Source: a virus
Virus record (IMG/VR): IMGVR_UViG_3300010373_000001
Location: 1 to 64,000 of that record
Length of the DNA stretch: 64,000 nt
Reading direction: 5' to 3' (one strand)
Position numbers and translations under genes: made by a program. Of the stretch, positions 5,345 through 56,636 are shown piece after piece. The notes beneath the pieces are model-generated. The model made no database searches. It had not been told where the DNA came from and was given only the letters and a program-made list of their open reading frames with translations. Positions within the stretch are counted from its first letter, which is position 1. Each line of letters opens with the position of its first letter.

Positions 5345-5686
5345 TTACCACATTGGTATTGTCGGGATAGAAGTTCCATCCCTTCCGGAAACTTTCCCGG
5401 AGAAATCTGTTGTGTGTGCGTCACCGATATGTGACTGCGGCTGCTGTCCGTACAGAACATCTTCTATAGTCAGCGGCTCTGATTCGTAACCTGTTCTTGG
5501 AGGATCAGCGGGGAGATTCATGTTACGTGCAATCTCCCTGTTGGTAGTCATCGGGTTTGCAGTAATAAGAGCCTGAGCACAGGTTACCTGCTCATATGTC
5601 CCGCCGTAAAAGGTGCGAGCATACTCAACACGATCATTCTGCCAAGAATGAGTAGTGTCATACGTTGTCTCAGGCTGTACTCTCAT
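5345..5686 (-). CDS. hypothetical protein
   Basis: 113 aa; ATGA overlap with the upstream gene. Confidence 0.65.
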   Translation of the reverse strand: MRVQPETTYDTTHSWQNDRVEYARTFYGGTYEQVTCAQALITANPMTTNREIARNMNLPADPPRTGYESEPLTIEDVLYGQQPQSHIGDAHTTDFSGKVSGRDGTSIPTIPMW

Positions 5687-6060
5687 GCTACAGTTCTTCC
5701 GTTGTCTCCCTGGAAGCCTACCAGAGAATGCATTCTCTCAGTCATACCCTCAGTGTGATGATGATAGTATCCATGCTGTCTTTGTGCCGCTCTTGGGGTA
5801 GCGTTACCAGGCTTGCCTGTTCCGCCCTCACCAGAACCATCTGCTTTGGTAGGTGCTTTAGCAGCAGTTACTTTCCCGGCTACTGGTGGCTTAGGTGCCT
5901 TTGCCTGTACTGGCGCTGGTGGCTCTATGCCCTTTGCATGCTTAGGCTGATATGGTGGCTTCTTGTTCTGCCCGATAGCTGAATGAATATCCTTACCAGC
6001 GCTGTATCCGTTGGCGTGCTTGCCAGGATCAATCTTCGGGAATTGCGGTCCTAGTTCCAT
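5683..6060 (-). CDS. basic Pro/Lys-rich protein with N-terminal LGPQF motif
   Basis: begins MELGPQFPK; low-complexity basic body. Confidence 0.65.
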   Translation of the reverse strand: MELGPQFPKIDPGKHANGYSAGKDIHSAIGQNKKPPYQPKHAKGIEPPAPVQAKAPKPPVAGKVTAAKAPTKADGSGEGGTGKPGNATPRAAQRQHGYYHHHTEGMTERMHSLVGFQGDNGRTVA

Positions 6061-6063
6061 GAC

Positions 6064-6855
6064 TCACTTCTTGTAATGAAGCACGACACCCTTAGGTACT
6101 GGTGCGCTCCAGGGTAGTTTGCCGCTGAAAATGCTGTTGATATATGCTGCCTGATGTGCGCTGAACTCATGTGCCTTGTTAGAGTGCTCGCAAGTCAGTC
6201 TAAGTATAGTCGATGGAGCCGTGTCAAGTTCGTGAGCAATTTGCTCCAGGCTCAGATTGCCTAGTGACTTGTACTGCATAAGCTGTGGCTTCTGATGAAG
6301 ATTAGCTAGCAGCTTCCACACTTCTCTTGTGCCGTTGAAAACATCCTTGTCAACGCCCTTCCAGTCATACTGCTGCATCGTCCATATCCTGAACGGATGC
6401 ACGTCGGGAGGGTTACCCTCAGGCCCACCAGGATTAGCAATCCAGAAAGGACGGTCGTAAAGACCTCCTACAATGCCGCGATGAAGGAAATCATAGTTAC
6501 AGTAGATGAATACGTTCTTCTCTGTCAGCCTTGCAACCTCGTTAACAAATTTCCTTACGAGCGAACTTGTCAGCCCTTCGTGCTCCACATCAGCACACAG
6601 AATATCGTCTGCCTCTAATCCGTGCAACTTAACTTTGTTCACGAATACATGTGCCTGGGCGATGGGATCAGAAGTGTTAAGAAAATGATACGCACCGCGC
6701 AGCATCTTATCTTCCTTCATCATCGACCAGAAGGTAGAGAAATCTCCGTCTACGAAACCCGTACCTTCAGAAGCCTTAGCGATTGCGAAATCTACGTTAA
6801 GGCCCTTTAGGCTAATTAGCCCATTGTTATTACTTACATCTACACCTTTAAGCAC
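6064..6855 (-). CDS. endolysin, GH25 muramidase with a possible LysM-like C-terminal domain
   Basis: GVDVS, IAKASEG, RGAYHF, DVE catalytic DxE, QQY, GVDKDVF; AAGGA RBS before GTG 6855. Confidence 0.9.
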   Translation of the reverse strand: MLKGVDVSNNNGLISLKGLNVDFAIAKASEGTGFVDGDFSTFWSMMKEDKMLRGAYHFLNTSDPIAQAHVFVNKVKLHGLEADDILCADVEHEGLTSSLVRKFVNEVARLTEKNVFIYCNYDFLHRGIVGGLYDRPFWIANPGGPEGNPPDVHPFRIWTMQQYDWKGVDKDVFNGTREVWKLLANLHQKPQLMQYKSLGNLSLEQIAHELDTAPSTILRLTCEHSNKAHEFSAHQAAYINSIFSGKLPWSAPVPKGVVLHYKK

Positions 6856-7138
6856 TTGCTGGTCCTTTCCAATGCTCGTTGTTTGATCTTCCCAGATTAC
6901 ATGATCTGCACGCTGGCTGAACGTTATGCCTAGCATAAGGTCCACCAGGCTTAATCCTGTCTGCTTCTACTGTATCAAAAGTTAACGGCTTTGAGCAATG
7001 GGTACACTGCACCTGATGACCCTCAGTTCCCGGAGTTCTCTTAAACTGCGGGCTTGAAAGCATCCAGTTTTTTCTTGCTCTTCTGGCAGCAGCAGATCCT
7101 CTGGGATCAGTTCTGCCCGGAGATCCACCGGCTCTCAT
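6848..7138 (-). CDS. HNH-fold zinc protein (catalytic His apparently replaced)
   Basis: CTHC...EADRIKPGG..HNVQPACRSCN; contains LSSPQF. Confidence 0.75.
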   Translation of the reverse strand: MRAGGSPGRTDPRGSAAARRARKNWMLSSPQFKRTPGTEGHQVQCTHCSKPLTFDTVEADRIKPGGPYARHNVQPACRSCNLGRSNNEHWKGPASA

Positions 7139-7477
7139 TTACTTTACCGTTGACATTGGCCCGCCTTTAGCGTGCCTTCCCATCGCTGTGTCACCTGTTC
7201 TGGCTACTGCTGAAACGTCCTTAGCATGATTATAAGATCCTGCATGGCGTCCCTTTGATGGCCCGCCTACCAGAGTGGTTGAACCTGAGCTATTACCGAA
7301 CTGACTTCCTAGCGCATGTGAAGCATGCTCTCCTGAGCTAGAGCCAAACATAGCTCTGGCCTTCTCTGCCGCTCTTGCTGAAGCTTTGCCGATAGATGAC
7401 TTCTCAAGCGTGCCGCTTCTTATTTTACGTGCTAGGGACTTCTGCTGCCTCCTGCGCTGTAGTGCATTCTGGGCCAT
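7139..7477 (-). CDS. basic low-complexity protein with internal LGSQFG
   Basis: 112 aa, R/K/S/G-rich; AAGGA RBS. Confidence 0.65.
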   Translation of the reverse strand: MAQNALQRRRQQKSLARKIRSGTLEKSSIGKASARAAEKARAMFGSSSGEHASHALGSQFGNSSGSTTLVGGPSKGRHAGSYNHAKDVSAVARTGDTAMGRHAKGGPMSTVK

Positions 7478-7486
7478 GTTTAATCC

Positions 7487-8041
7487 TTACATTGCATAGC
7501 GTGGAAGCATTTTCTGCATTCTCGCTACTCTAGTTGGGTCTTGTATTACAACTGGGTTCTTAGCGACAGAAACACCATACTGTTTAGCTAGCTGTATCTG
7601 CTCGGGCGGCGTCAAACCTGGCTTGCCCAGATGTGAAAGTTTTTCTACGGGATTTCCCGTTGGCTTGTATCTTACTACGTTCATGGTGTTCTCTTCCTGA
7701 ACGTAGCTAGCTTCAGCGCGAATTCTTCTCATAGGATCATATCCTGACGGCCAGAAGTAGTCCTGGTTATCAATCTTAGATCCTTTGTGAACTCCGCGCT
7801 GGTAAGAGCGCTCAGTAAGCTTTTCCTGAACTCTCTCAAGTAGTCTATCCTCGCGGCGGTCAGTAATTGTGCCAAGATAACCATCAGGGTACTCTGCGCC
7901 AGGAATCTTATTCTTAGCAGCGCGGGCAGCGTCCAGCGGTGAACGGTAGTTAATTACCGCAGCGTTACCGCCACCACCTACTGTAGCACCGCCTGGAAAC
8001 GTAGGACCGGGCTGTGTGTCTACCCACCAATTACTAGGCAT
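7487..8041 (-). CDS. hypothetical protein, probably virion-associated
   Basis: 184 aa; AEYPDGYLGTI..RREDRLL..SYQRGVHKG; TAATG coupling. Confidence 0.65.
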   Translation of the reverse strand: MPSNWWVDTQPGPTFPGGATVGGGGNAAVINYRSPLDAARAAKNKIPGAEYPDGYLGTITDRREDRLLERVQEKLTERSYQRGVHKGSKIDNQDYFWPSGYDPMRRIRAEASYVQEENTMNVVRYKPTGNPVEKLSHLGKPGLTPPEQIQLAKQYGVSVAKNPVVIQDPTRVARMQKMLPRYAM

Positions 8042-8316
8042 TAGTTCCTCGCAGCGTATGCTCTCTGCATAGTAGCGTCTTTAGGAGTACGAACTTTTTC
8101 CTTGATAGTCGTAGGGCTGGTCTTGCGTGTCTTTACCATAGCCCTGCTGTGCGTGTTGGAATTATCCAGTTCGCGTTTTCTGTCGGCCTTGCTATTGCTT
8201 TCGTACTGCTCTTTCATGAAATGAAGTTCGCGTTTGGCATGGCTCGTAGCAGAACTAACTAGAGCTTGTGTGCCCTGCGCACCGAACTGAAGCGTGCTGA
8301 TATTCCTGTTGCCCAT
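8041..8316 (-). CDS. basic protein with N-terminal ISTLQFG motif
   Basis: begins MGNRNISTLQFG; TAATG coupling. Confidence 0.65.
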   Translation of the reverse strand: MGNRNISTLQFGAQGTQALVSSATSHAKRELHFMKEQYESNSKADRKRELDNSNTHSRAMVKTRKTSPTTIKEKVRTPKDATMQRAYAARN

Positions 8317-8558
8317 TAGTTCGATGTCCGGTTTCTGTCTGTCGTTCTGGGACTGATCTTTTCCGAGATCCTACCGACATTGTGACTAACATGCTGGGCT
8401 CTCACGTTATCCCACATAGTATTCTTATGAGCAGTTGCGGCACCGTGAAACTCTTCAGATCTAGATGCTTTTCTGTACTCAGCAGAATGAGCCCCCACCA
8501 TACCACGAGCATTTGCTCTCCGCAGCATTTCCTGTGGGCTAGTGGTCATGAGTGCCAT
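8316..8558 (-). CDS. small basic protein
   Basis: 80 aa, Arg-rich, colinear. Confidence 0.6.
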   Translation of the reverse strand: MALMTTSPQEMLRRANARGMVGAHSAEYRKASRSEEFHGAATAHKNTMWDNVRAQHVSHNVGRISEKISPRTTDRNRTSN

Positions 8559-8561
8559 TGG

Positions 8562-8930
8562 TCAGACTCTCTGCCCGTATGCTCTCTTAGACCAGAAGTC
8601 ACCAGCAGAACCAGTGCCATCACTTCTCCTGATAGCAGGAGACATAAGCTTTACGTTTCTTTCTGTGGCCGATGACTCTGCCGCATTCTTCTTGTAAAGG
8701 GTCGCACTGATATGGAACCTTGGTCCCTGTGCTTCCTTAATAAGAGTGCGACCGCGTACATTAGCAGTCTTACCCGGTGCAGTCCCGCCTGCGGTATTCT
8801 TACGCGGAACGCTGATAGTGTTGGCAGATCTCCTGCCACTTGCGTTTACGCAGTGCTTCATCCACTTGTCACCCATTGTAGGGAAACTGCTGGTTGACTT
8901 ACCGCCGTAGGAACGTGTAGAGGTTACCAT
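8562..8930 (-). CDS. small basic protein
   Basis: GAGGA RBS; 122 aa, K/R/S/T-rich. Confidence 0.65.
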   Translation of the reverse strand: MVTSTRSYGGKSTSSFPTMGDKWMKHCVNASGRRSANTISVPRKNTAGGTAPGKTANVRGRTLIKEAQGPRFHISATLYKKNAAESSATERNVKLMSPAIRRSDGTGSAGDFWSKRAYGQRV

Positions 8931-8940
8931 TTAATCCTCA

Positions 8941-9255
8941 TTAATTTGTATTGATCGTGTGGCTGAAATTAGGATTCAGTTGGTTGTATGTGCTGTCTGA
9001 ATAGCCATCATTCTTTGAGGGTAGCTGCCCATTAGGAGTTTGCCTCTGGGCATCAGCATCGCTATTCCCGTTCTGCGGGGATCTTATATTGAAATAAAGA
9101 TCCATAACAGAGTGAGGTCTGCGGGCAGCATCAGATGACTGCTGGTTAAACGCATTAGACGTAGCCTGAAGAGAATACGGGCTGCCAGTTGTGGCACCTG
9201 TTTTAAACTCAGCAGATCTTCCTGGTGCTGTAGTACTTCCTGTTACTGGAAGCAT
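8941..9255 (-). CDS. hypothetical low-complexity protein
   Basis: GAGGA RBS before ATG 9255 (MLPVTG). Confidence 0.6.
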   Translation of the reverse strand: MLPVTGSTTAPGRSAEFKTGATTGSPYSLQATSNAFNQQSSDAARRPHSVMDLYFNIRSPQNGNSDADAQRQTPNGQLPSKNDGYSDSTYNQLNPNFSHTINTN

Positions 9256-9262
9256 AGTTTCC

Positions 9263-9538
9263 TCACGTTGCAAAAATTTTGAATACTATTGCCGTTACCG
9301 TGCCGTCTGGCATGTCAACGTCAGTAAACCCTGGCCTCATTGATAGTGTAAGACCTCTGGCCCCCACATAGCTCTGAGCGATAGCTACAGCCTTGACAGC
9401 CTGATTGACTGCCGCCGCACCTATAGCCCTGAGGATGACTTTTCTTCCGTCATAAATACCGTGTGATATTGCTGAAGCGAGCGCTGGTGCAGAAGAACTG
9501 CCCTTTACTCTCAGTACTGTATCCTGTTCAGTAGACAT
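9263..9538 (-). CDS. spoVS: stage V sporulation protein S family (Alba-like nucleic acid-binding fold)
   Basis: VLRVKGSSSAPALASAI..RAIGAAAVNQAVKAVAIA..PGF; AGGAG RBS. Confidence 0.9.
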   Translation of the reverse strand: MSTEQDTVLRVKGSSSAPALASAISHGIYDGRKVILRAIGAAAVNQAVKAVAIAQSYVGARGLTLSMRPGFTDVDMPDGTVTAIVFKIFAT

Positions 9539-9579
9539 ATAATGCTCCTATAATAGCCTATTATTACATGTCTAGGATA

Positions 9580-9918
9580 TCACAGTTTAAGCGGCTCCAG
9601 CAGCTTGCAGAAATCCTCACCAGTCATGGTGACATACCACTTCATCGGGTCTGTCGTCCCTATTTTCTTGTGCCACACAACCCCTATATCGGCCCCGGCA
9701 TTCTTCTTCTCTGCCTCAGCCTCTTTCAGCCACTCAGACAGTAAAGTCCTTTTCTGATTTTTAACCTCTACAACTACCGCTAGGGGAGACATATCAATGT
9801 CTCCCCTGTCAGCGGCCCCCATAGGGGGATTTCTTTTTGCTGCAAATCCTTTTTCGAGAAGAGCGTTTACTACTGCTGTTTCAGCTTGCGTGCCCTTCTG
9901 CTTACTTCTGTTTACCAC
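9580..9918 (-). CDS. Holliday junction resolvase (Hjc-like PD-(D/E)xK)
   Basis: SKQKGTQAE, RGDID, VEVKN. Confidence 0.8.
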   Translation of the reverse strand: MVNRSKQKGTQAETAVVNALLEKGFAAKRNPPMGAADRGDIDMSPLAVVVEVKNQKRTLLSEWLKEAEAEKKNAGADIGVVWHKKIGTTDPMKWYVTMTGEDFCKLLEPLKL

Positions 9919-10801
9919 CTTTTGCCGCTATCTGTAGTCTGTTTTCCTCTTTTATATCTCCCCTGCGAAGATACGCCATACCTGTGCCCGCGATACTTCC
10001 GATGATGGCTGCAATTGGCACAGCCTCCATAAACGGGGCAAGATGCACAAGCAGGATAAGATTAAAAAATGTGAAGATGGCTGTCCATCGGAACGACATC
10101 GATACCATCGAAGCTTCTCTGACGTGTACTTTATGATCCTCTGTCAGTACTACGTCTTTTGTATCTTCACTGACATACTTCAGCATGTGATTCATGACGA
10201 AATCCAGATGATAGCCCAGTAGATCTTCGTCTGTCCGTCGATCAGCTTCCATGTAGTGTCTGTACCAGGATTCATACATGTCTTGCTCGAATCCTTCAGC
10301 GACATTAACTTTAACAAGCTTGTCGCATACTGAGCATCCTGTAGAAACCATCACCGGAAAAGTGTAGGTAAAGATCGCGGGGGGAATTTCCTGAATGGTG
10401 TTGTTAAACCCACCCTCACGGTACGGTATTACCTCAGATATATAAGTACTTCCCGCACCACCAGCGCCGCCGCCCCAGTTTTCTGTTCTGGTAGTTGATA
10501 TGACTTTCCCTGTACCAGTCAGAATTCCTGTACCAGTCAGCGTTGGGCTAGCTTGCTCGATGATAGCTTTGCTCCATAGCTCCTGAGTAGGAGTTGTCCC
10601 AAACTTCTTTCTTGTTCTCTCGTCAACTACGCCCATATCTATTCCGCTGTCTATGTACTCCAGGCATACCAGATTCTCTACCCCACCGCCGATTTCGTAG
10701 ATGTAGTGATAGTACCCGCCACCGAAATCAGCAGGTTCAAAAATTTCCTTGATTGTCTTGCCTGTTATAGTGCTGTATGATTCCTTAACATGCCTCCGCA
10801 T
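9902..10801 (-). CDS. hypothetical protein with C-terminal membrane segments
   Basis: AGGAGG RBS; CSVC motif; two hydrophobic helices near the C-terminus. Confidence 0.6.
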   Translation of the reverse strand: MRRHVKESYSTITGKTIKEIFEPADFGGGYYHYIYEIGGGVENLVCLEYIDSGIDMGVVDERTRKKFGTTPTQELWSKAIIEQASPTLTGTGILTGTGKVISTTRTENWGGGAGGAGSTYISEVIPYREGGFNNTIQEIPPAIFTYTFPVMVSTGCSVCDKLVKVNVAEGFEQDMYESWYRHYMEADRRTDEDLLGYHLDFVMNHMLKYVSEDTKDVVLTEDHKVHVREASMVSMSFRWTAIFTFFNLILLVHLAPFMEAVPIAAIIGSIAGTGMAYLRRGDIKEENRLQIAAKGGKQK

Positions 10802-10818
10802 TCTGCCCTCCTAAGCTG

Positions 10819-11235
10819 TTAGCTCAGTTTAGCAGCCCACTTCCACCATTCTTTCCTGGGCGGGCCGACTGCTTCCATTTCAGGGAACCTTACAGCAATT
10901 CCCTTTTTAAATGCATACTCACAGCAATCTCTTGTGCCGCGAGAGCTATCCACCGGGAAGCCTAGCACAAGATCAGCACCGCTGTCAACCATTTCGTGAT
11001 TACGAATCGGACCAGCCGCTCTACCGTGCTGATTCCAGTCCGCAATAAATCTTCGGAAGTTAGCCCGCGTAGCTTCCGCGTACATATAGGCGAAGAGATC
11101 GGCCCCCGTTGGGCAGTCCCCGAATTTTAGCATCAGAAGCAGCGGCGGTACTCCAAGATCATTGATCGCATCAAATATCAGTTCCCAGTCATAGTAGTCT
11201 CTGGAACCTGTGATGATAACTGTAGAAGAGTACAT
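10819..11235 (-). CDS. SLOG/DUF2493-family protein
   Basis: IITGSRD, GDCPTGAD, ADWNQHGRAAGPIRN, SRGT. Confidence 0.8.
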   Translation of the reverse strand: MYSSTVIITGSRDYYDWELIFDAINDLGVPPLLLMLKFGDCPTGADLFAYMYAEATRANFRRFIADWNQHGRAAGPIRNHEMVDSGADLVLGFPVDSSRGTRDCCEYAFKKGIAVRFPEMEAVGPPRKEWWKWAAKLS

Positions 11236-11236
11236 C

Positions 11237-11695
11237 TTAGTCCTTGGTGTAGGTTCTTCTGGTCAGTTCCCTTGATACCAGGAACTTAGCTCTGTCCAGC
11301 CTGCGGTAGATTGTCTCGATGACCTTACGGTAGGCATAGGCTGAGCTAACCTTATCTTCCTGCCGCGCATACCCTTCGTCCATCATGACGATAGATTTCA
11401 GTTCAGAGACAGTCTTAGCTTTACCCTTGTTGTCTATCTGAAGTCCTGCCGAAACAATGTCCAGCGCTGTCTGCTCACCCTTCTCGTCAATCTCTGCTGC
11501 TGCTAGCTGTACTTCTACGTATGATAGCCAGGATTCAAACTGCCCGAATAGTACCATTAGCTCTTCAGAATTGATTGCAGTGATATCGGGTGGCAGTTCC
11601 GGGATATTAAACTCCGGCTCGTCCGGAAGAGAAAATCCCTGACCTCTTACCTGCTTGACTGCGGTATGTGATGACATACCAAGTTTGTAGCTCAT
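11237..11695 (-). CDS. helical protein, possibly a UvsY-like recombination mediator
   Basis: 152 aa, all-helical, in the recombination block; function is a guess. Confidence 0.45.
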   Translation of the reverse strand: MSYKLGMSSHTAVKQVRGQGFSLPDEPEFNIPELPPDITAINSEELMVLFGQFESWLSYVEVQLAAAEIDEKGEQTALDIVSAGLQIDNKGKAKTVSELKSIVMMDEGYARQEDKVSSAYAYRKVIETIYRRLDRAKFLVSRELTRRTYTKD

Positions 11696-11940
11696 TCTTC
11701 CCTCTTACATGGGGCGGTCTTAGTTGCCTGGTAAACGATTCGCTTTAGCTGCTCTTCAACCTCAGTCGGTCCTACGTGCTGGTACTTCTCACAGTCTCTC
11801 ACAGCCGCTTCCTTTGTGTCCCTGACATGGATAAGGTGACGATACCCGAAGCCCTCGATAACGTAGGAGATATACTGAGTCTTATATGTAGGTCTATCCT
11901 CGTCTGAGACTGTTTTTCTGTTCTTAAACATCTTTCTCAT
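11692..11940 (-). CDS. hypothetical protein
   Basis: 82 aa, overlaps both neighbours. Confidence 0.55.
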   Translation of the reverse strand: MRKMFKNRKTVSDEDRPTYKTQYISYVIEGFGYRHLIHVRDTKEAAVRDCEKYQHVGPTEVEEQLKRIVYQATKTAPCKREE

Positions 11941-12904
11941 ATGCTCTGCAAAGAGAGCATCCTCCTTTTCCGTGCGGGCACTCAGGAGGTTTCCCTTCTG
12001 TGAGCGCCGATTTTATGGATTCGACATTGACTAGCATAGGCTGGAGGATATCATCTGACGGGTACACAATAAACTCACGAACCTGCTGGTTGGCCTTGAA
12101 TTCGTACAGGAACACGATCTTGTCGAACGGCATACCCATTTCCTTAGCCATCCACAGATAGATGTTGCCCTGCTTAACGTGAGCTAACAGTGGACGGTGA
12201 ATAGATTTCCACATACCCTCAACGTCGTTGATAGTTTTAGTGCCGATTTTCAGCGTGTTATTCTCGAAAATCGTCGGGGCTTCGAACTTCAGTGTGCCTA
12301 TGCCGACTGACTTGATTTCGATCAGGCAATCATGCTTGATCAGGCCACCATCAGCATGCCCGGAAACAGGCAGCGAAGTTGATCTAAGTGTAACCTCACG
12401 ATACTCCCACTCATGTTCGTGACTTGAAGCTGGATAGTTTGGCTGCCAGTTAATGTAGTCAGGAGTAAGCGGGGGCTTTACTGAGTTAGAGATCCTAGTA
12501 TCACACTTCCCGCAGTACCAGTCTCCCCAGAGGAGTCCTGTATCCGATAGCCAATCCTGCCACTTAGAATGAATTCTGTTTCCCTCGGAGAAGACATTCT
12601 CCAGTGTGAATGAATATCTGCCAGGTGGTTCTGGCATTCCTGACATTCTGTAATATGTTGCTCTAGGGCACCAATCGGCTCTAGCCATTTCGGATGGATA
12701 GACAACATTACTTCTTCTCCTGCCTCTTTCCGCATTCTTATGATGACGGGCCAGAAGAACCTTCTTTATCTCCGGCAGTACTAGCCCGGACATAGCTTTT
12801 ATTTCTGAGTAGTCAGCGAAGTCGCCTGTTTTCTCAACTCTTTTTCTCGTCGGTCCCGTCGTATCTTTCTTAAGTTTTGCAAGGCGTCTTGCTCGCTCGT
12901 CCAT
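11924..12904 (-). CDS. Cas4-like/RecB-family exonuclease (solo)
   Basis: PSEM..WCPR, GNRIH, GHADG, IEIKS, QGNIY, C-terminal CPH..CSLC; GGAG before ATG 12904. Confidence 0.8.
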   Translation of the reverse strand: MDERARRLAKLKKDTTGPTRKRVEKTGDFADYSEIKAMSGLVLPEIKKVLLARHHKNAERGRRRSNVVYPSEMARADWCPRATYYRMSGMPEPPGRYSFTLENVFSEGNRIHSKWQDWLSDTGLLWGDWYCGKCDTRISNSVKPPLTPDYINWQPNYPASSHEHEWEYREVTLRSTSLPVSGHADGGLIKHDCLIEIKSVGIGTLKFEAPTIFENNTLKIGTKTINDVEGMWKSIHRPLLAHVKQGNIYLWMAKEMGMPFDKIVFLYEFKANQQVREFIVYPSDDILQPMLVNVESIKSALTEGKPPECPHGKGGCSLCRAYEKDV

Positions 12905-13197: not shown

Positions 13198-13200
13198 TAA

Positions 13201-17998: not shown

Positions 17999-18009
17999 CT
18001 GAACTAACG

Positions 18010-44425: not shown

Positions 44426-44426
44426 T

Positions 44427-44939
44427 TTAAGGTTGGCTCCATTGTGCGAATAGTTGATCATCTACCAGTTCGTCTGGCTTCATCTGTGTTGCTTCAAGTC
44501 CTACGATGATGTCTCTCTGCTGAATCTGCCCGCGAATTGCCAGGGCCAGAACACGGAAGATCTTCTGATCGTAGTAAAGTCTGTCGTTAATATAGTTACC
44601 AGTCTGAATATCAGCATAGGTCATACCCACACCTACAAACTGATCGAAAGCAATAGAAGCTGTCAGGGTGTCATTGTAGTAGAAACCCATGTCAGTGTTC
44701 TCATTCTCGCCCTCAAGGTGAGTCACATGAAGGCAGGGAACTCTAACCGCAGGCTTGTAAACACGGCCAATGCCAGTAGCTTCGTCATAGATAGGGTCTA
44801 CTATAGTAGCGTCCTGATCTAGCCTGAAGTAGTCTATCCAGTCTCCTGAGACATCTCTCCAGCCGCGCATTCCCTTGAAGATACGGTCAGTTTCCTGATC
44901 AGCAGACCAGCGGCCTTTCTTCCAGTCCAGCTTACCCAT
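44427..44939 (-). CDS. head closure / neck protein
   Basis: VDPIYDE, GFYYNDTL; position between adaptor and terminator. Confidence 0.6.
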   Translation of the reverse strand: MGKLDWKKGRWSADQETDRIFKGMRGWRDVSGDWIDYFRLDQDATIVDPIYDEATGIGRVYKPAVRVPCLHVTHLEGENENTDMGFYYNDTLTASIAFDQFVGVGMTYADIQTGNYINDRLYYDQKIFRVLALAIRGQIQQRDIIVGLEATQMKPDELVDDQLFAQWSQP

Positions 44940-45262
44940 CAGATACCGCGCTTCTTCAGGGCACTGACGAACTTCTTACCGTCAGCAGTAAGATTCTTAG
45001 AGTGCTGAACCGTAGGATCAAACTGCTGAGCCTGCTGAAACAGATGCATGGCAAGTCCCTGACCCTGGAATTGTTTTCCTACGTCAAGGCGTGTTACACC
45101 GCCAACTGGCTCACTCCTATAAGCAGGATCAGTGTTCCAGTAGATCTGTCCCACTAATCCGTGGTCAGGATGATGAGCTTCAATGCTTCCCATTCCGCCA
45201 CTGATATCTTTCTCAAGATTCAGATCACCGAATTGCAACGGCTGCAAAACTCTTCTTGCCAT
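44939..45262 (-). CDS. GNAT-family acetyltransferase with N-terminal LQPLQFG motif
   Basis: LDVGKQFQGQGLA (acetyl-CoA motif A); HS..LTADGKKF. Confidence 0.75.
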   Translation of the reverse strand: MARRVLQPLQFGDLNLEKDISGGMGSIEAHHPDHGLVGQIYWNTDPAYRSEPVGGVTRLDVGKQFQGQGLAMHLFQQAQQFDPTVQHSKNLTADGKKFVSALKKRGI

Positions 45263-45477
45263 TATGCACCCTGACCATTCTTGAAGTTCTCTGTTCTGCT
45301 GGCTTCAAATTTATTATTGCAGCCTGGGCAGATGGGACGAACCTTAGAGTCTACCTTATTGTCTGCGGCACTATATTTAGCCATCATCTTGCAATCTTTA
45401 CCGCAAAGAGTAGTTTTTCTGTCTGCGGTAAGATGTTCCTGCCTTCCGCCCGGTGATCTTGCATATAGATGTCCCAC
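45262..45477 (-). CDS. small zinc-binding protein
   Basis: H..LCGKDC..CPGC; TAGTG coupling. Confidence 0.55.
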   Translation of the reverse strand: MGHLYARSPGGRQEHLTADRKTTLCGKDCKMMAKYSAADNKVDSKVRPICPGCNNKFEASRTENFKNGQGA

Positions 45478-46289
45478 TACATACCCTGACCATTCCAGAT
45501 CGGTGAAGGAATACCGCTATCGTCAACCCAGTGCTTGTCAATTGGCGGGTTCTCACGCTCTGGCCAGATATGGTCATCGTACTCACGATCAACGAAAATC
45601 GGAACAAGTCTGCCAGTAGTGCGGGAAACTCTTCTAAGCTTTAGTGTTTCAGTACGGTACATACCAACGTTTAGCTGAGCACACATTCTTTCGTATCGCT
45701 CTTGCAGGTCATTGATATGTCCCATAAGCTGAGCATAACGAGCGGTACGGTTAATGTTCGTACCCTCTGCGGTCTGAATGTCGGCATCAGTAGCAGCGTC
45801 GTTAGCTAGTACCCATAGCGTGTTGATAGTAGCCAGGGTTACCAGCATCGGCTCTTCAATAGCAGGCAGATTGTCCAGAGTCATAGGAGTTCTGCGATAG
45901 CTAATGAATCCTTGCCTGGTATGCATTCTCTCAGTGATTGTCCTACCATGAGTATGCTGATGCAGAGAGTCGTTAATTTGGGTAGTCAGATCGTTATCAG
46001 TGAACATTCCCCACGCATAGCCCTGAGTCAGAACAGTCGCACCGTTGGCAACCTTGTCATTCAGCGTGATAAATCCAAGCTCTTCGTCCAGAACGTAGTC
46101 AGTTGTAGAACTAAGCAGGGTTGTCTGGGCGCCGTTGATGATAGTTACCTGAAGAGTATTAGGATCTATATTCTGCTTAGGCAGGTCGTATAGCTGAGTC
46201 ATGCCATCACCCAGGGATGAAGTCATGAAAGGCTGGAGCGGGTCACCAATCTCGTTCCTCACTCTGGCTATCATGTCTGACATTTGCAT
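45477..46289 (-). CDS. head-to-tail adaptor
   Basis: RVRNEIGD, FTDNDL, LRRVSRTTGRLVP. Confidence 0.65.
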   Translation of the reverse strand: MQMSDMIARVRNEIGDPLQPFMTSSLGDGMTQLYDLPKQNIDPNTLQVTIINGAQTTLLSSTTDYVLDEELGFITLNDKVANGATVLTQGYAWGMFTDNDLTTQINDSLHQHTHGRTITERMHTRQGFISYRRTPMTLDNLPAIEEPMLVTLATINTLWVLANDAATDADIQTAEGTNINRTARYAQLMGHINDLQERYERMCAQLNVGMYRTETLKLRRVSRTTGRLVPIFVDREYDDHIWPERENPPIDKHWVDDSGIPSPIWNGQGM

Positions 46290-46299
46290 TAGCTATTCC

Positions 46300-48930: not shown

Positions 48931-48946
48931 TCGGAATCCTGTAGGA

Positions 48947-49534: not shown

Positions 49535-49540
49535 TGTTCC

Positions 49541-51037
49541 TCAGGTTACGTATGCGTAGAAGTTGTATCCAACTGTGCCAGTAATGGCTGTCAGAGTAGT
49601 TGACAGTGAGGGAGGAGTAGTCTGGCCAGTGTTAGACACACCATAAAGAATAGGTGCCGCTGACACTAGAGCAACGTTAACGGGATCGGCCGTAACCATG
49701 AAGGTTGGCATTGTTCCTGAAGTCTCTGCGATCATAACACCAATGTAGTACAGACCCTCAGAAGGAACCACATAAGGTGTTCCAACTGCTAGAGACTGTA
49801 CCGCATTTGCTGTGTGGAATGTGGTAGCAGCGTCGGTCTGGTCTGCTGTAACCGCAACAACTGATCTAGCTGAGTTAGCCAGAACGTACCATCCGTGAGT
49901 ACCGCCAGTCTTAACTGTGCTAGATAGCCACATGTTGATGTTGGTTACAGTAATACCCTTAGGGAGATAGATACCTGTTAGGTAAAGTGATCCTGATGCC
50001 AGAGCGGCAGAAGTAGCTGTAGCTCTCTGCCTCTCAAATGTCTGAGCTAGTGTTCCCGTAGGAGCTAGTGCCAGTCCACCAGTGCTGGTGTTAGTCAGGG
50101 AAAGAGTATTACCTGTCTTGGTAAGACCTGTTCCTGCTGTGATTTCTCCTGCGCCTGAAAACTGGGTCCAGTTAACAGCAGTAGTTCCTACTGTGAAAGG
50201 ACCGGCTGAAGCTACAGTGAAACCCGAACCAGCATTGACTGTGCCGATTTCCACGAATACATATGCACCGGGGAATTCAGCAGCCTGATCCATGTCAAGT
50301 GCTCTGGTAAGAACGTAAGCCACACCAACAGCACCAGCAGTTGATACGAAGTAGATACCGTTATTAGCGGCGGTTGCCTCGTTCTGTACCAGGATTCTTT
50401 CGCTAGCGGCCATTGTATGACCGTCAACGATAAGTGCTCCCGTAGAAGATGCTGTAAGAGTAGCGCCTACTCCGGCTGTGCCGTTAGAATATGTGTTAGC
50501 TGGCAGAGTAGTTGTGGTAGCCACAACTACTGAAGGCTTTGTGCTTAGACCCTGTGCTGTTGAGTCAACGTAAGTCTTGTTCGCTGCATCAGTTGGATTA
50601 ACTGGCGTAGGAGTAGTAACCGTTCCTGTAAAGGTTGGGCTAGTCAGACTCTTATTGGTAAGAGTCTGGCTGTCCGTTGTTCCTACTACAGCGCCAGTGA
50701 TACCATGTACAGCAGTTGATGCCGCAATGTGGACCTGAGGTTCATTATAATCCTGAGCCGAAACACCGTGAACAACTACAGCGCCCTGCGAATGCGCTTG
50801 TGCTGAAGTTCCGTCGATGCCTCTGGTGCAAGGAAGTGTGTAAGGTCCAGTACCAGTCGGTGCTGAGGTTACTGAGATAGCTTCCTGAGTTGAAAGACCC
50901 CAGTCAATAAGCACAGTGAAAGGATAAGAAGTTGGAAGTCCCGTAATGCTGTTAACAGAGGGGTTACCTGAAGAGGCTACAGATGAAGCAAGAGCCGTAG
51001 GTGCAGCAGTAGAACTGTAGAACCTGTTCTGAGTCAT
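49541..51037 (-). CDS. fibre protein
   Basis: RGIDGT, DAANKTYVD, RILVQNE..NNGIY, QFSGAG..AGTGLTKTGNTL. Confidence 0.75.
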   Translation of the reverse strand: MTQNRFYSSTAAPTALASSVASSGNPSVNSITGLPTSYPFTVLIDWGLSTQEAISVTSAPTGTGPYTLPCTRGIDGTSAQAHSQGAVVVHGVSAQDYNEPQVHIAASTAVHGITGAVVGTTDSQTLTNKSLTSPTFTGTVTTPTPVNPTDAANKTYVDSTAQGLSTKPSVVVATTTTLPANTYSNGTAGVGATLTASSTGALIVDGHTMAASERILVQNEATAANNGIYFVSTAGAVGVAYVLTRALDMDQAAEFPGAYVFVEIGTVNAGSGFTVASAGPFTVGTTAVNWTQFSGAGEITAGTGLTKTGNTLSLTNTSTGGLALAPTGTLAQTFERQRATATSAALASGSLYLTGIYLPKGITVTNINMWLSSTVKTGGTHGWYVLANSARSVVAVTADQTDAATTFHTANAVQSLAVGTPYVVPSEGLYYIGVMIAETSGTMPTFMVTADPVNVALVSAAPILYGVSNTGQTTPPSLSTTLTAITGTVGYNFYAYVT

Positions 51038-51043
51038 TGGTTA

Positions 51044-51619
51044 TCAGCCCTGTGTATCGAAGTCAACTTCGAAAGTGAATCCATCGTTGTTAACTGGAGC
51101 GGAGTTCGTTGCTGTCCTTCTTACCCAGATTGCCGCACAGAAGTTAGGTGCGATAGTTCCTAGCTGGATACCATTCGTGTATGAAGGGGAAACAGGTGCC
51201 GATACTGAAGGCCCTACCCATCCTGATACACCAACGGGTGCGTTTGTTGCTGCGGTAATCTTCACGGCCTGTTGTGAGGAAGAGCCTTTAGTAGAAGCAC
51301 CAGTAGGGTCAGCCGCAATTGATACGGTTGCGCCGCCAGGAACGAATAGCGAGTTAGGAAGCCACACTACTGTATTTAGCATAGAGTTTCCGCTACCTGT
51401 GTTATTTAGAATGAACACACAAGCGTAGTCTACCTGATCAGCCGCGTTCTGGGCACCAGTAATGTCGGGGAAAAGATTGTTTAGAGGGGTCGATGACATC
51501 TGTGTGGTGGAAATATAATTTCCCCAGGAATCACCGGGAGCACCTGTTACTGAATTACCTGACGTAGCGCCCGGTGCAGACAGCATGAACAGGACATCTG
51601 TGCTAGCAATAGCTGTCAT
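51044..51619 (-). CDS. virion structural protein
   Basis: NNLFPDITG, YACVFI, AIWVRR. Confidence 0.65.
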   Translation of the reverse strand: MTAIASTDVLFMLSAPGATSGNSVTGAPGDSWGNYISTTQMSSTPLNNLFPDITGAQNAADQVDYACVFILNNTGSGNSMLNTVVWLPNSLFVPGGATVSIAADPTGASTKGSSSQQAVKITAATNAPVGVSGWVGPSVSAPVSPSYTNGIQLGTIAPNFCAAIWVRRTATNSAPVNNDGFTFEVDFDTQG

Positions 51620-51632
51620 ATTGAATCCTATA

Positions 51633-52145
51633 TCATGATTGATTAGTTGTTATTGCATCAGCAGCTATAGCGATTTCCTGTGTGGCAAGTACCTGTTGCG
51701 GTGCATCAAGAGTCCAGGTATAGGCAAGATTGCCAACTGTTCCTGATGCGACTGTAACCAGAGCTAGCCACTGGGCAGCCAAAGTCATATTTGCAGAGAC
51801 AGGCCCGAAAATAAGCAAGCCGTTATTGGTGCTTACTGACGGCAATGTATCTGTCGCCGGGTTGAATGTTACTGCAATACGGGAGTAACCTGCTGTTGTT
51901 ACTTCCTGAAGATCGGATATAAAGACAGCACTGCTAGGATCTGCTGTGCAAAGAGCAAGATATCTTGATCCGGCCGCTACCCACGCGGTTCCATTGAACT
52001 CGTTTACAACGTAGCTGGCTGAAGAATTAATCCAGTACTGACCTGGAATTGGAGTTGATGGTGCAGTACCGGCAACAACAGGAGTCGTTAGACCAAGCAG
52101 CGAGTTAAGCTGTACCTGTGCCCCCCATGGTGCAATGCCCGTCAT
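51633..52145 (-). CDS. virion structural protein (fibre anchor-like)
   Basis: YLALCTADP..EVTTAGYSR. Confidence 0.65.
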   Translation of the reverse strand: MTGIAPWGAQVQLNSLLGLTTPVVAGTAPSTPIPGQYWINSSASYVVNEFNGTAWVAAGSRYLALCTADPSSAVFISDLQEVTTAGYSRIAVTFNPATDTLPSVSTNNGLLIFGPVSANMTLAAQWLALVTVASGTVGNLAYTWTLDAPQQVLATQEIAIAADAITTNQS

Positions 52146-52583
52146 TTACTGTCCTATATAAGCTAGTCGGCCCTGAGCCTCTAGGTGCTTTGCCAGATCT
52201 ACTGGAACTTTATATGAGAAGCCAACCTTGAATGAAAAAGTATTCAGTGAGCCCATTACTGCGGGTCTTCCTGTATCCGGATCACCTGGATCGACTACTT
52301 GCCTGCCGAAAGTCATATCTGTGATGTCAGAATTAACTCTAATTGTCCTAATAGGACTATTGATTTCGACTGGCGCTTTCTCGATACTCTCGTCTAGAGG
52401 AACGTCCGCTCCTGTGTAGTCGATAACGGTATCGTAATCTTCTTCTCTTTGTGCATTGACCATAGCAAGATGTTGTGCTTGCTCTTTTAGTTCTTCTTTG
52501 TGTGCTTCAGCTAGTCTCTGAGTAGTAATCCCAGTAAAGTCTGCGGGGCTCTTGCCCGAAGTTCTGGTCTTTGGTGCTGTCAT
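52146..52583 (-). CDS. head-associated hypothetical protein
   Basis: follows the capsid gene; YKVPVDLAKHLE. Confidence 0.65.
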   Translation of the reverse strand: MTAPKTRTSGKSPADFTGITTQRLAEAHKEELKEQAQHLAMVNAQREEDYDTVIDYTGADVPLDESIEKAPVEINSPIRTIRVNSDITDMTFGRQVVDPGDPDTGRPAVMGSLNTFSFKVGFSYKVPVDLAKHLEAQGRLAYIGQ

Positions 52584-52619
52584 TTTTATCCCTAATTACT
52601 TGTTCGAAATTTGATTGTA

Positions 52620-52642
52620 TCCCCCTCCATATCGGAGGGGGA
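52620..52642 (-). terminator. stem-loop after the major capsid gene
   Basis: TCCCCCTCC-ATATC-GGAGGGGGA. Confidence 0.6.
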
Positions 52643-52661
52643 CAACAGTCACGTAATAAAA

Positions 52662-53663
52662 TCAGTTAGTCTCTGCGATCAGAACTGCCTGATCGGTGAT
52701 AAGACCAAGACCCCAGATCGCGTACCATGCTAGAGCATGCTCACGACCGAAGTCCAGAATACCACCGTCTCGTAGCTCTACAGGCAGCGAGATAGCATGC
52801 CCGAAAGCGTTGTCACCAATGAAGATGGCATCGTACAGAAGAGGACCGGATGAACCCTGTACGTAGTTATTGAATACCTGAGTGGTTTCAATGAAAACTA
52901 CGTCATTCAGACGGCCAATTTCACCCAGAAGGAAGTTGCCAGGTGCGGCATACTTAGTCACTTCAATAAACTCAGGGTCATCCCTAAGCTGACGTGACTG
53001 GTGAGGGTGAATGAAGCAGACGTAAGTCTCGCCTAGCCTCGGCACGTTCTTGGTAGCAAGTGTCTCCTGTGCGTCCTTAACTACAGCAGTTGTGAAGCTG
53101 AAGTTACCTGCTGAAAGCGCAGAAGATGAAGTTGCCGCAGAACCGTGGTCATAAGGCGAAAGCGGAGTACGAACAGCAGTTGACAGAGCAAACTTGTTGT
53201 ATCCCCAGATCTTTGAGGATGCCTGCATCAGTGTGTCTCTTGCACTGCCGTCAAGATAAAGGGCCATGTTACGGCCAAGCAGACGTGAACCAGATGCCAT
53301 AACGTCATCAAATGATGCGTTCAGCAGCAGTTCTGATACTGCAATAGCGAAGCCCTGCTCAGCTACGGTGATGTCAAACTGAGAAGCTGTAAGAGGGTTA
53401 GTAGCCATACGCACACCTTCAACAAGCTGTGAAGCTGCACCTAGGTTGTTGTACCTCATGAAATGAATGGTCAATCCCGGCTGTACGTTTAGTTCAGTCT
53501 TCTTTACAGCAAACTGCTCAAAACGCAAAATCGGCATTGCCTGGAACAAAATTTCTTTCGACCAGATTGTCTGGACCGCTGGGGTAAGCTGTGAACCTCC
53601 ACCAGCATAAGCTGTTGGTGATGCGCTCAGAAAGCTAGTACCAGTGATAGCACTTCCTGCCAT
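52662..53663 (-). CDS. major capsid protein, N4-gp56 family
   Basis: LRFEQFA, GLTIHFMRY, LVEG, YVCFIHP, GEIGRL..FIET. Confidence 0.9.
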   Translation of the reverse strand: MAGSAITGTSFLSASPTAYAGGGSQLTPAVQTIWSKEILFQAMPILRFEQFAVKKTELNVQPGLTIHFMRYNNLGAASQLVEGVRMATNPLTASQFDITVAEQGFAIAVSELLLNASFDDVMASGSRLLGRNMALYLDGSARDTLMQASSKIWGYNKFALSTAVRTPLSPYDHGSAATSSSALSAGNFSFTTAVVKDAQETLATKNVPRLGETYVCFIHPHQSRQLRDDPEFIEVTKYAAPGNFLLGEIGRLNDVVFIETTQVFNNYVQGSSGPLLYDAIFIGDNAFGHAISLPVELRDGGILDFGREHALAWYAIWGLGLITDQAVLIAETN

Positions 53664-53690
53664 AGCAGAGTACCTTTCGTGTAAGTTATT

Positions 53691-54557
53691 TTAATTTAAT
53701 AGACCCTTGTTTTGCCCTGCTTTATCCAAGCCCGACTGCTTTCTGTACGCCGCGAATTCCTCCATGCTCATCGCATTGATCTGTTCTGCGGTGTAAGTTC
53801 TCTGCCCTGTTAGATTGTCCAATGGCCCAGATGGACCGAAACCTGTTGGCGCGACCCCGGTTGGCCTGCCTTGTCCTGGGTTTACCGGAGTTTGTCCGGT
53901 CATGCTAGCTACTATATTAGCAGTTTTCTGAATTGCTTTGGTTAGGCTAGCATCAATTTCTTCTTTTGTATTGCCGCCAATGTAATCAACAAAATCCTCG
54001 GCTAGCTGCTGGTTAGCAATAGCCTGGGCAACTACCTGCTGAGTATAAGCCTGAAGTTCGAAGAGCTGCCTCTCCTTATTCATGAAAGCTCTCTCAGCTT
54101 CCATGTCCTTCTTAAACTGTTCTTTCTCAGCGTCCCACTCTGCGGCTCTTTTAGTAATCAGCTCTTCTGCTGATAGCTTAGCCTCAGCGGCTTTCCTGGC
54201 TACTTCGTCTGCTTCTTCTCGCTGCTGTTTTGCAGCAGCTTCTCTGGCATTCTCAGCTTCAGATAGTCTCTTTAGTTCCTGCTGGAATTCAGCAGCCTGA
54301 TCCTCAGCCTTCTTCAGCCTGTCATATACCTTGTCCTTTTCCTGCTTTCTTGCAGCTTCAAGCTGTTCTGCTGTGAAATACTGCTGTCCGGGAGGAGGGT
54401 TATTAACAGTGATATTCAAGGGTGAAGCATCAGCCGGTGGTACGGGGGGATTAACCGGAGGCTCGGTTGGCGTACTTCCGCCAGCCTGCAATCTGATTGG
54501 ACCTCTTTTACCGTAGCCGATGATCTGGCCGGGCATGTTTGTGTTCGGCATATACAT
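53691..54557 (-). CDS. capsid scaffolding protein
   Basis: coiled coil between portal and capsid; ARKQEKDKVY; INAMSMEEFAAYR. Confidence 0.8.
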   Translation of the reverse strand: MYMPNTNMPGQIIGYGKRGPIRLQAGGSTPTEPPVNPPVPPADASPLNITVNNPPPGQQYFTAEQLEAARKQEKDKVYDRLKKAEDQAAEFQQELKRLSEAENAREAAAKQQREEADEVARKAAEAKLSAEELITKRAAEWDAEKEQFKKDMEAERAFMNKERQLFELQAYTQQVVAQAIANQQLAEDFVDYIGGNTKEEIDASLTKAIQKTANIVASMTGQTPVNPGQGRPTGVAPTGFGPSGPLDNLTGQRTYTAEQINAMSMEEFAAYRKQSGLDKAGQNKGLLN

Positions 54558-54599
54558 TATCTCTTTCAGTTAACTTACAGTTTTCCGTTTAAACCACGA

Positions 54600-56318
54600 T
54601 TAAGAATTATCTGTGTTATTTATATTTCTTCTCTGCGGCAGTTTAGTGCCGTATGCCATTGTCACGATGTCTTCCATCGTGTTATCTCCAGCCAACCCTG
54701 TGATATCTCCCAGTGATGGAAGATCAGGCAATGGCTGGTTGTCAATGGCAGCATCAGGCTTTCCAGGTTCGCCTTCCTTTGGCTTATCATCCTGCTCGGC
54801 GTAACCTTCAGGTACTAGCCCTGTCAATTTCATAATTATAGCACTGATATGTGCTTTTAGAACCTGCATAGCAGCTTCCTGCTTTGCGTCTACTATTCTT
54901 TCCTCGAACAGCTCAGCCAGTTTCTCGTCTGGGAATTCTTCACCCAGTTCACGAAGAGCACCGACTTTAGACTCAAGCCCAAGAGCCTGCTTTACCTGGA
55001 TTTCTGACAGCTTAATTGTCTCGTCAACCGGCAGTGGTGGTGGCCACACAATGCTGACATTGTAAATGTCGTCATCACCTGGATTAAGGATTAAAGGCTG
55101 TTCCTCTGTTTCCTTGATACCATCGGTTTCCGGATCGTACATCAGAGTCTCTGGCTCAAACAGGAACAATGTCTTGAGAGCCATCCTGCTTATTTCCTTA
55201 AGACCAACTTCGTACTGAGTTCTCTTCTGGTCATAGGCAAGCATAGTAGGCATGTACTGGATAGCCAGTGCCACGCCTGATGTACTAGAGATAGACTGAG
55301 CTTCACCCAGAGCCGTTTGCGGGATGCCGATCATCTCGTGCATTCCCAGCTTTAGCATCTGAAGGAACTCAATAGCGGCAGGAAGTCCCTCAGCACCACC
55401 GCTTAGGTTAGTGATCTTGGCATCTTTAGACGCAAGAGCCCAGATCTTATTTGCTCCCTGCTCAAGATTAGAAGCTTTTCCTCCGGTGATAACTGTCACG
55501 GGTGCCGTGTGATAGTTAATGATGTCAGAAACGTCAGTTGCTTTTTCGTTAAAGTCCCTGTTCAGAGGTATAACGTCCATGACATCTGATAGACCCCATG
55601 GAGAAGCAGAGGCAATACGGTTAGCAACATGAACAACCGGAATGAATCCTAGCGGATTCTCCCTGCGGTCAATCAGTTCGTCGTTAACGTATTCCTCAAT
55701 GGTGTCATCAGTAAGAATTTCAACGTAGGTGAATACCTGACGTGTTCCCTCCGGTGCTGTGCCCCAGAAACGGTACTTGATCTTAAACCTGATCAGGCGA
55801 TCCCTGTCATGAGGATGCCATTCCGGGAAACAGAAGCTTGCGTTAATGGGCAGGATTCTTACCTTGCCCTTATGTACTGAACCTACTGCATCTGTGTAAG
55901 GAGGTTCCCATGCAACCTTAACGAAAGAGTCTCCCTGAACACTTCCCTGGTTGCCGATTTCCCATAGTAGCTGCTGCTTGTTATTGTCCTTCATCCAGAT
56001 ACGGTCAAGCAGAGCGGGGATAATGTGCTGGAATTTCTTAGGTGACTGGAATGTAACTCCGCGAGAGAAGGTAAAGTTTACCATCCAGTCTGATAATGCA
56101 CGCACATAGTTGAAAGTTATCTGCGGCTCTCCTGGCTCTCTTCTGTAAGCCCAGTGATGCCCAAGATAGAATGCCCAAGCTTGAGCATAGCGGTTAAGTC
56201 TGGGTCCATGAACCTCAAACTCTTCGTCAGCTAGCTCGACCAGACCTAGAGGAGAGATAGCAACAGTAAGGTCGCTACCAGCAGCCCTCATGGATGGGCT
56301 TACAAAATCAATGCTCAT
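54600..56318 (-). CDS. portal protein (SPP1 gp6-like)
   Basis: FYLGHH, GDSFVKV, NPLGFIPVVH, WGLSD, SGVAL. Confidence 0.9.
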   Translation of the reverse strand: MSIDFVSPSMRAAGSDLTVAISPLGLVELADEEFEVHGPRLNRYAQAWAFYLGHHWAYRREPGEPQITFNYVRALSDWMVNFTFSRGVTFQSPKKFQHIIPALLDRIWMKDNNKQQLLWEIGNQGSVQGDSFVKVAWEPPYTDAVGSVHKGKVRILPINASFCFPEWHPHDRDRLIRFKIKYRFWGTAPEGTRQVFTYVEILTDDTIEEYVNDELIDRRENPLGFIPVVHVANRIASASPWGLSDVMDVIPLNRDFNEKATDVSDIINYHTAPVTVITGGKASNLEQGANKIWALASKDAKITNLSGGAEGLPAAIEFLQMLKLGMHEMIGIPQTALGEAQSISSTSGVALAIQYMPTMLAYDQKRTQYEVGLKEISRMALKTLFLFEPETLMYDPETDGIKETEEQPLILNPGDDDIYNVSIVWPPPLPVDETIKLSEIQVKQALGLESKVGALRELGEEFPDEKLAELFEERIVDAKQEAAMQVLKAHISAIIMKLTGLVPEGYAEQDDKPKEGEPGKPDAAIDNQPLPDLPSLGDITGLAGDNTMEDIVTMAYGTKLPQRRNINNTDNS

Positions 56319-56374
56319 TTGCTACTTTCTCTGCCATTTAAGTGTCCCGTATTAGTTGTTCTTAAACCTGAGGA

Positions 56375-56405
56375 TGCCGGGAGTACTTTTTGAGTACTCC
56401 CGGCA
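56375..56405 (-). terminator. stem-loop before the portal gene
   Basis: TGCCGGGAGTACT-TTTTG-AGTACTCCCGGCA, 13-bp stem. Confidence 0.6.
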
Positions 56406-56411
56406 GAAGAT

Positions 56412-56636
56412 TTAGCCTCTTCTTACCCTCGGTTTTGGTGCGTGCAGTACATATGTTCCGGGTCTTCTAACATCAGTTCCCGGCTTCTTAAGAGGTGATT
56501 TTCTCTTAGCACCCAGCCTTGTTTCCGGCCTGTACCCTACCAGAGTTCTTCTGTGATGAAACTCTGGTACAACGGTATGACCTTTCGTGTGCCGGGTTGG
56601 CTTTTTGAACTGCCCCGGATTTAGCGGCGCAGACAT
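56412..56636 (-). CDS. very basic small protein with N-terminal LNPGQF motif
   Basis: begins MSAPLNPGQFKK; K/R/P-rich. Confidence 0.65.
   Translation of the reverse strand: MSAPLNPGQFKKPTRHTKGHTVVPEFHHRRTLVGYRPETRLGAKRKSPLKKPGTDVRRPGTYVLHAPKPRVRRG

Follow-up and report, generated by a model that had tools for sequence, protein, structure and literature searches.

Encapsulins, which are non-viral, take up unrelated enzymes into an HK97-fold shell through short cargo-loading peptides that are usually C-terminal. In phage T4, a short N-terminal peptide, the capsid-targeting sequence (CTS), is common to the internal proteins IPI-III and Alt, and its role in encapsidation is proven (PMC3012670; Mullaney and Black 1996 via PMC9024508); this internal-protein cargo is cleaved by the prohead protease gp21 (PMC3012670). 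DarB of the myophage P1 is an accessory protein, and a signal within its first ~10–30 residues has been proven experimentally to send it into the head (PMC9024508). The capsid and scaffold of Staphylococcus phage 80alpha share an N-terminal motif that is cut by the host protease Prp (PMC5744158). The Prp/L27 motif reads MLxx(D/N)LQ(F/L)F'A(S/H)KK, with the cut between F and A (PMC9405229). Here we describe a short peptide ending in Gln-Phe (QF) at the N-terminus of several small proteins encoded in a 64-kb stretch of viral DNA (positions 1 to 64,000 of IMG/VR record IMGVR_UViG_3300010373_000001, hereafter the window). We are highly confident that the QF peptide is a real, modular N-terminal leader, or tag, which is placed on many unrelated small proteins. 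No description of the motif was found in the literature searched.

Results

The QF leader in related phages

The phage genome (G000) is complete at 115,610 bp and has direct terminal repeats; the window covers its first 64 kb. The closest cultured relatives of the phage are the ~112–116-kb Streptomyces myophages BRock, GiJojo, LuckySocke, Alone3 and pSt2308 (capsid identity ~72%), and 287 related portal loci are present in IMG/VR. The group consists of soil myophages, probably with actinobacterial hosts. A previous sequence-only reading of the window had proposed a shared [LI]-x2-3-Q-F peptide on six proteins and had held that its enrichment needed a proper test. This test was done on 1,010 protein families with one representative each, taken from relatives only (GiJojo and the genome G004 included). 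The motif [LI]-x2-3-QF was found within the first 12 residues in 16.6 families, versus 1.46 expected (P ~4e-13). QF alone was found near the N-terminus in 25.1 families versus 9.7 expected and was the top N-terminal dipeptide in the family-level ranking, and its density at residues 5–12 was 2.6-fold the expectation, versus 1.0–1.3-fold at other positions. When 80 portal-anchored loci of relatives were scanned, N-terminal QF was about 3 times as frequent as expected. Genes and starts of the relatives came from a simple in-house caller, and the result was stable with longest-open-reading-frame (ORF) starts, with starts chosen by ribosome-binding site and in a start-independent scan.

The consensus has L/I at position -4, S/N at -3 and often P at -2, followed by x-Q-F. 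In short form it is hydrophobic-[S/N]-[P/x]-x-Q-F with its end at residues 7–12, and QF is followed variably by K, G, S, P, R or E. A variant that is one residue shorter, L-G-P-Q-F, occurs on unrelated proteins in two relatives (G001 and G003). Certain wordings, such as NRNIS..QF, LNP.QF and VLSQ.QF, recur on different proteins. In five complete relatives the tagged genes form tandem clusters, in which neighbouring genes all open with a QF peptide; such clusters were located in G002, G003 (92.4–94.9 kb) and G005 (25.4–28.0 kb), with further tagged clusters in G307 and G308. The leaders of the clusters in complete relatives include MSASDHLNSQQF, MSATEHLGPQF, MSHRALSPEQF, MSREALNDNQF and MNRNLLSPLQF. 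The G003 cluster is headed by a gene (94858–95247; L104:14858-15247, minus strand) that opens with MSAPEHLGAQW, in which Trp replaces Phe, so the last position of the tag may tolerate other aromatic residues.

When the leader was stripped, 67 tagged proteins fell into 32 unrelated body families, and one GNAT body was found behind leaders of different wording, in line with the proposal that the cargo parts are unrelated and interchangeable. Upstream of tagged genes, DNA identity is no higher than random, and within the coding part it goes only as far as the peptide demands. Therefore, the tag is neither a repeat nor a scar of cassette exchange. These results indicate that the QF leader is a selected, flexible, address-type tag that is conserved as protein and not as DNA.

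In the genome of the window by itself, the motif is indistinguishable from chance. QF lies within the first 12 residues of 5–6 proteins versus 1.5–1.9 expected (nominal p ~0.015) and ranks 3rd–6th among the 400 dipeptides at the N-terminus, and the full motif [LI]-x2-3-QF was seen at 4 N-termini versus ~0.28 expected (nominal P ~2e-4). When all motifs of the anchor-gap-dipeptide form were allowed, an equally strong one was obtained in 91–100% of shuffled proteomes, so the count of six in the window proves nothing alone, and the real proteome also yields nonsense motifs of equal "significance". The single-genome test is underpowered, and the chance reading was dropped once the data of the relatives were in. 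A motif that fails in one genome can still be proven through its relatives.

Direct homology searches gave little. Orthologues of the six proteins were sought by tblastn in GiJojo, in the first 50 kb of BRock (1–50 kb) and in the 80 portal loci, and none was found; the counterparts of the portal-proximal gene were recognised by position alone and were missed by tblastn. Scans of IMG/VR and metagenomes with single proteins or family alignments returned only spurious pattern matches (L005, L006, L007). No N-terminal QF enrichment was detected in GiJojo, and no canonical tag was found in the 51 kb of the genome beyond the window. As GiJojo, a BRock-type cultured relative, has no tagged cargo, the earlier attribution of the tag to "this phage group" was too broad. 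As cultured carriers, mycobacteriophages Tonenili and Phabba were rejected: their genes match the GNAT bodies but carry no tag. Across whole proteomes the QF dipeptide is mildly over-represented both in G000 (51 versus 38.6 expected) and in GiJojo (60 versus 42), and this excess is independent of the N-terminal tag.

Carriers of the leader in the window

The six QF peptides of the sequence-only reading were exact in position and all lie on the minus strand, which carries nearly all genes, among them the portal, scaffold-position, capsid, endolysin, slot-edge, HAD-fold, DpdA-like and 56641–57099 genes described below. Their codons differ (CAA/CAG, TTC/TTT) and their nucleotide context is unshared, so the likeness is at protein level, as had been proposed. 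The shared tag therefore holds, with a narrower membership, as the real element is strictly N-terminal. The real carriers in the window are four, possibly five, unrelated small proteins. A position-specific scoring matrix (PSSM) trained on the relatives alone was applied to the 56 QF sites of the genome. The N-termini of the GNAT protein (44939–45262), of 8041–8316 and of 56412–56636 ranked 1st, 3rd and 5th, for which the chance is ~0.001 by hypergeometric estimate.

The 44939–45262 gene encodes a 107-residue minimal GNAT acetyltransferase with the tag MARRVLQPLQF (codons 45230–45262). Its PSSM score of 8.0 is the highest among the 56 sites as annotated. L6, P8, Q10 and F11 are invariant among 12 homologues with identities as low as 55%. 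The protein itself has no Pfam match at E<=0.01, and the acetyltransferase profiles (PF00583/PF13508) were matched by its homologues. The AlphaFold model has a predicted local distance difference test (pLDDT) score of 82.8, and its top matches in the PDB are all acetyltransferases (probability 0.98–1.0, template modelling (TM) score ~0.5), so by fold as well as by the profiles of its homologues it is a truncated GNAT. Residues 1–10 are modelled as a low-confidence coil.

The 56412–56636 gene, directly upstream of the portal gene, encodes a small, very basic protein of 74 residues with the tag MSAPLNPGQF (codons 56607–56636; PSSM 4.0). Positional counterparts of 70–74 residues precede the portal gene in L009–L013, and together with two database homologues 7 of the 8 keep L-x3-QF. 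Body identity drops to ~20% among these proteins, and the leader alone stays recognisable. The basic 91-residue protein of 8041–8316 carries the tag MGNRNISTLQF (codons 8284–8316; PSSM 5.1). No homologue was found in a search over 5.8 billion proteins, and two further proteins of the relative L009 open with peptides that match its first 11 residues, MTNRNISSSQF and MANRNIQPLQF. The fourth carrier (5683–6060, 125 residues) is rich in His, Lys and Pro and has the short variant MELGPQF (codons 6040–6060). LGPQFP is invariant in 5 members of its family down to 47% identity, but conservation also extends over ~35 residues at the start and over the C-terminus.

The sequence-only reading had also counted two internal sites, which fared differently. 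The HNH endonuclease ORF at 6848–7138 matches the PHROG HNH profile (1.9e-15, aligned from residue 8 of the 96-residue long form), and its match to Pfam HNH, at 19–20 bits, is slightly below the 21.4 cut-off. QF is internal in the long form; with ATG 7063 as the start codon the protein would begin MLSSPQFK and the site would be N-terminal. This short form retains the complete HNH domain and scores 9.9, which is the best of the genome in the start-independent scan. The HNH gene is therefore ambiguous as a tag carrier. The 112-residue basic, low-complexity ORF at 7139–7477 has HALGSQFG at residue 59, and it was rejected as a member because its PSSM score of -1.2 is within the background of the 56 sites.

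The interval from the replication genes to the endolysin gene contains several small ORFs rich in Ser, Thr, Gly, Lys and Arg (8941–9273, 8562–8930, 8316–8558, 8041–8316 and 7139–7477). Such ORFs in the 7139–9538 region are probably disordered, and orthologues in relatives were found in this region only for 8562–8930 and 7487–8041. A SpoVS-like protein at 9263–9538 (Pfam SpoVS 9.5e-23) is conserved in G001–G003 and GiJojo. It was rejected as a clue to the host, as its homologues are too widespread (Chloroflexota, Bacillota and others; identity <=49%).

Genomic setting of the tagged genes

The proximity of the window carriers to portal, neck and lysis genes was confirmed. The portal gene is at 54600–56318 (Pfam SPP1_portal 1.2e-18; PHROG portal 6.7e-39), followed by a gene in the scaffolding-protein position (53691–54557), which has no family match and whose GiJojo orthologue is annotated as scaffolding protein, and by the major capsid gene (52662–53663; PHROG major head protein 1e-59). 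On the lysis side, 5683–6060 lies just downstream of a GH25 endolysin gene (6064–6945; Pfam Glyco_hydro_25 6e-23). The earlier caution that QF also occurs in the capsid was right in that two such sites exist, but both are internal with PSSM scores below 0, so they are not tags.

In the structural module, the GNAT gene occupies a variable slot between two conserved genes, 45477–46289 on the upstream edge (orthologues in all relatives) and 44427–44939 on the downstream edge. In L009 and in G002 this slot is filled by two tagged genes each, those of L009 being different from the GNAT gene, and in L013 by none. In L041, L062 and L069, a gene for a tagged protein of 309–323 residues separates portal from scaffold; L009 and L064 have it at other places. 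This protein belongs to no recognised family (L041:11761-12732, L062:4078-5016, L069:5870-6799, L009:11895-12824), and its slots across relatives are the portal-scaffold gap, the upstream side of the portal and the neck slot, which suggests that it behaves like a mobile cargo gene. A second home of tagged genes is near the genome end, upstream of a HAD-like and a DpdA-like gene.

Candidate partners of the leader

Three genes of the window were considered in relation to the tag. Upstream of the small basic gene, 56641–57099 encodes a universal protein of 152 residues (the cluster-11 protein) with a related N-terminal element, SPLAPVDHYPER. Close to their N-termini, 63 orthologues have [LI]-[AGS]-P-x-P-x-[FY]-P-E-R, with a conserved F and a variable Q position, and the GiJojo orthologue retains DLAPNPQFAEK. 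No match to the protein was found in Pfam, PHROG, PDB sequences or Atlas.

The 169-residue HAD-fold protein of 2282–2791 is a weak lead for a partner. Its closest folds are the 3'-phosphatase domain of T4 Pnkp and MDP-1, with Tim50 among the matches, and its motif I reads xVEG in place of DxDG, so the nucleophile Asp is replaced. A role as a protease acting on the tag was rejected, as a HAD fold without the nucleophile Asp is not a protease. Its orthologue lies beside or flanks tagged clusters in G003, G005 and G308, next to the DpdA-like gene. In phylogenetic profiling for a tag partner, 2282–2791 was at first the sole gene that fitted, as the HAD-like gene is present in 7/7 tag-bearing genomes examined. 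It is also present in two incomplete genomes that have no tags. Tags thus occur in 7 of the 9 HAD-positive genomes and in neither of the 2 HAD-negative ones (Fisher ~0.11), and because of these two extra genomes the link is not significant. The DpdA-like gene (789–2255, 488 residues) has no Pfam match of its own and is an orthologue of the dpdA-like tRNA-guanine transglycosylase gene of GiJojo; it flanks tagged clusters in G003 and G005.

Discussion

Possible functions of the leader

The most likely function of the tag, although somewhat short of an even chance, is to load accessory proteins into the head or portal region. The floppy leader would act as a short linear motif that is read by one common partner; the accessory proteins would be docked through it into the assembling head or portal region and would then accompany the DNA. 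Since the phage encodes no prohead protease, the leader would serve for docking and would not be cleaved by the phage. The absence of such a gene, noted before for the window, extends to the complete 115.6-kb genome, which has no S78, S77, ClpP or S49 protease. Loading is consistent with the variable slots that tagged genes occupy within the head/neck module (ahead of the portal, in the portal-scaffold gap, and flanked by structural genes), with the portal-proximal basic protein, which conserves the tag only, and with the nature of the cargo, which comprises basic proteins and small enzymes (HNH, GNATs in three genomes, and weak hints of ADP-ribosyltransferases). It also agrees with the low-confidence coil of the tag in the GNAT model, with the lack of a prohead protease and with the T4 and P1 precedents (PMC3012670, PMC9024508). 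A more specific form of this reading is doubtful: the leader would be the protease-independent address tag of a plug-and-play delivery system, in which proteins with a ~10-residue tag are docked in the head and injected, and the receptor would possibly be the HAD-fold pseudo-enzyme or the universal portal-proximal protein. Several observations weigh against loading. Many tagged genes are far from the head genes, as neighbours of the HAD-like and DpdA-like pair close to the genome end, and GiJojo has the same portal, scaffold and capsid but no tagged cargo. No tag was found on the capsid, scaffold or portal of this phage, most cargo bodies have no recognisable family, and phylogenetic profiling identified no receptor.

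The position of the largest tagged clusters, outside the structural module and beside HAD-like and DpdA-like genes, is consistent with recognition by a host or phage factor that is unrelated to the virion. The leader might then be a degron by which toxic enzymes are kept short-lived, or a peptide that docks to a host hub protein or to a phage adaptor. The enzyme-like cargo and the tendency of the HAD-like pseudo-enzyme to co-occur with tags agree with this explanation, which we nevertheless consider rather unlikely, as that co-occurrence is not significant and the head/neck slots and the portal-proximal basic protein are left unexplained. To our knowledge, the tag is unlike clamp-binding and ClpX N-motif patterns, and this resemblance was set aside. 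A lack of function, in which the similarity results from chance, shared descent or cassette recombination at the 5' ends of genes, is very improbable. The motif could not be separated from chance in the one genome, and the 7139–7477 site is at background, but the enrichment among 1,010 families contradicts this explanation, as do the leader that stays invariant within families while bodies diverge, the 32 unrelated bodies behind it, and the random upstream DNA with coding identity only as the peptide needs.

Cleavage is an improbable explanation, although it may coexist with loading. The leader would be a propeptide cut off by an unrecognised host or phage protease, like the L27/Prp motif of the 80alpha capsid and scaffold, and it may possibly hold enzymes inactive or coordinate assembly. 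The same kind of N-terminal ..L-Q-F.. motif is present on non-homologous phage proteins cut by Prp (PMC5744158, PMC9405229), some tags run ..TLQFG or ..PLQFG, and the N-terminus of the GNAT model is flexible. In contrast, the F'A cleavage dipeptide is absent and the residue after QF varies, the capsid and scaffold are untagged here, and the complete genome is devoid of Prp as well as of the prohead-type proteases named above. The Prp cysteine protease (PF04327) was also not above the cut-off in 301 genomes sampled from the phylum of Adlercreutzia, the likely host phylum, where controls were positive. Prp itself was rejected on these grounds, together with the difference between the motifs.

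Should the tag serve for loading, it would identify what a large group of uncultured soil phages delivers into the host cell, namely acetyltransferases, nucleases and proteins of basic DNA-binding type, and dozens of "hypothetical" genes would become one defined functional class. Foreign proteins could then be packaged into actinobacterial phages by means of a short, portable peptide, just as the signals of T4 and P1 allow in E. coli phages. Should the tag instead direct cleavage or degradation, an unrecognised protease or adaptor is implied.

Comparison with known systems

The L27/Prp system resembles the QF tag in that a ~10–14-residue N-terminal leader with L-Q-F is placed on non-homologous proteins, in phages without their own prohead protease. 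It differs in the F'A site, as the QF tag has a single F followed by a variable residue (K/G/S/P/R/E), and in its carriers, since the 80alpha motif sits on capsid and scaffold, the N-termini of which are both untagged here. Encapsulin peptides are likewise short, terminal and attached to unrelated enzymes, whereas the QF tag is N-terminal, viral and of other sequence. P1 DarB is similar as an accessory protein of a myophage with an N-terminal signal. This signal has another sequence and is described for one protein, versus dozens here.

The QF tag has no sequence relationship to the T4 CTS, and T4 has gp21 (Peptidase_S77), whereas S77 or any other prohead protease is missing from this phage, so removal of the leader by a phage prohead protease has no counterpart among S77, S78, ClpP and S49 in the complete genome. 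The likeness is in the design. As in T4, a short N-terminal peptide is the sole shared part of diverse small enzymes and basic proteins, here on 32 body families and with an N-terminal enrichment at P ~4e-13, and the cargo behind it is interchangeable.

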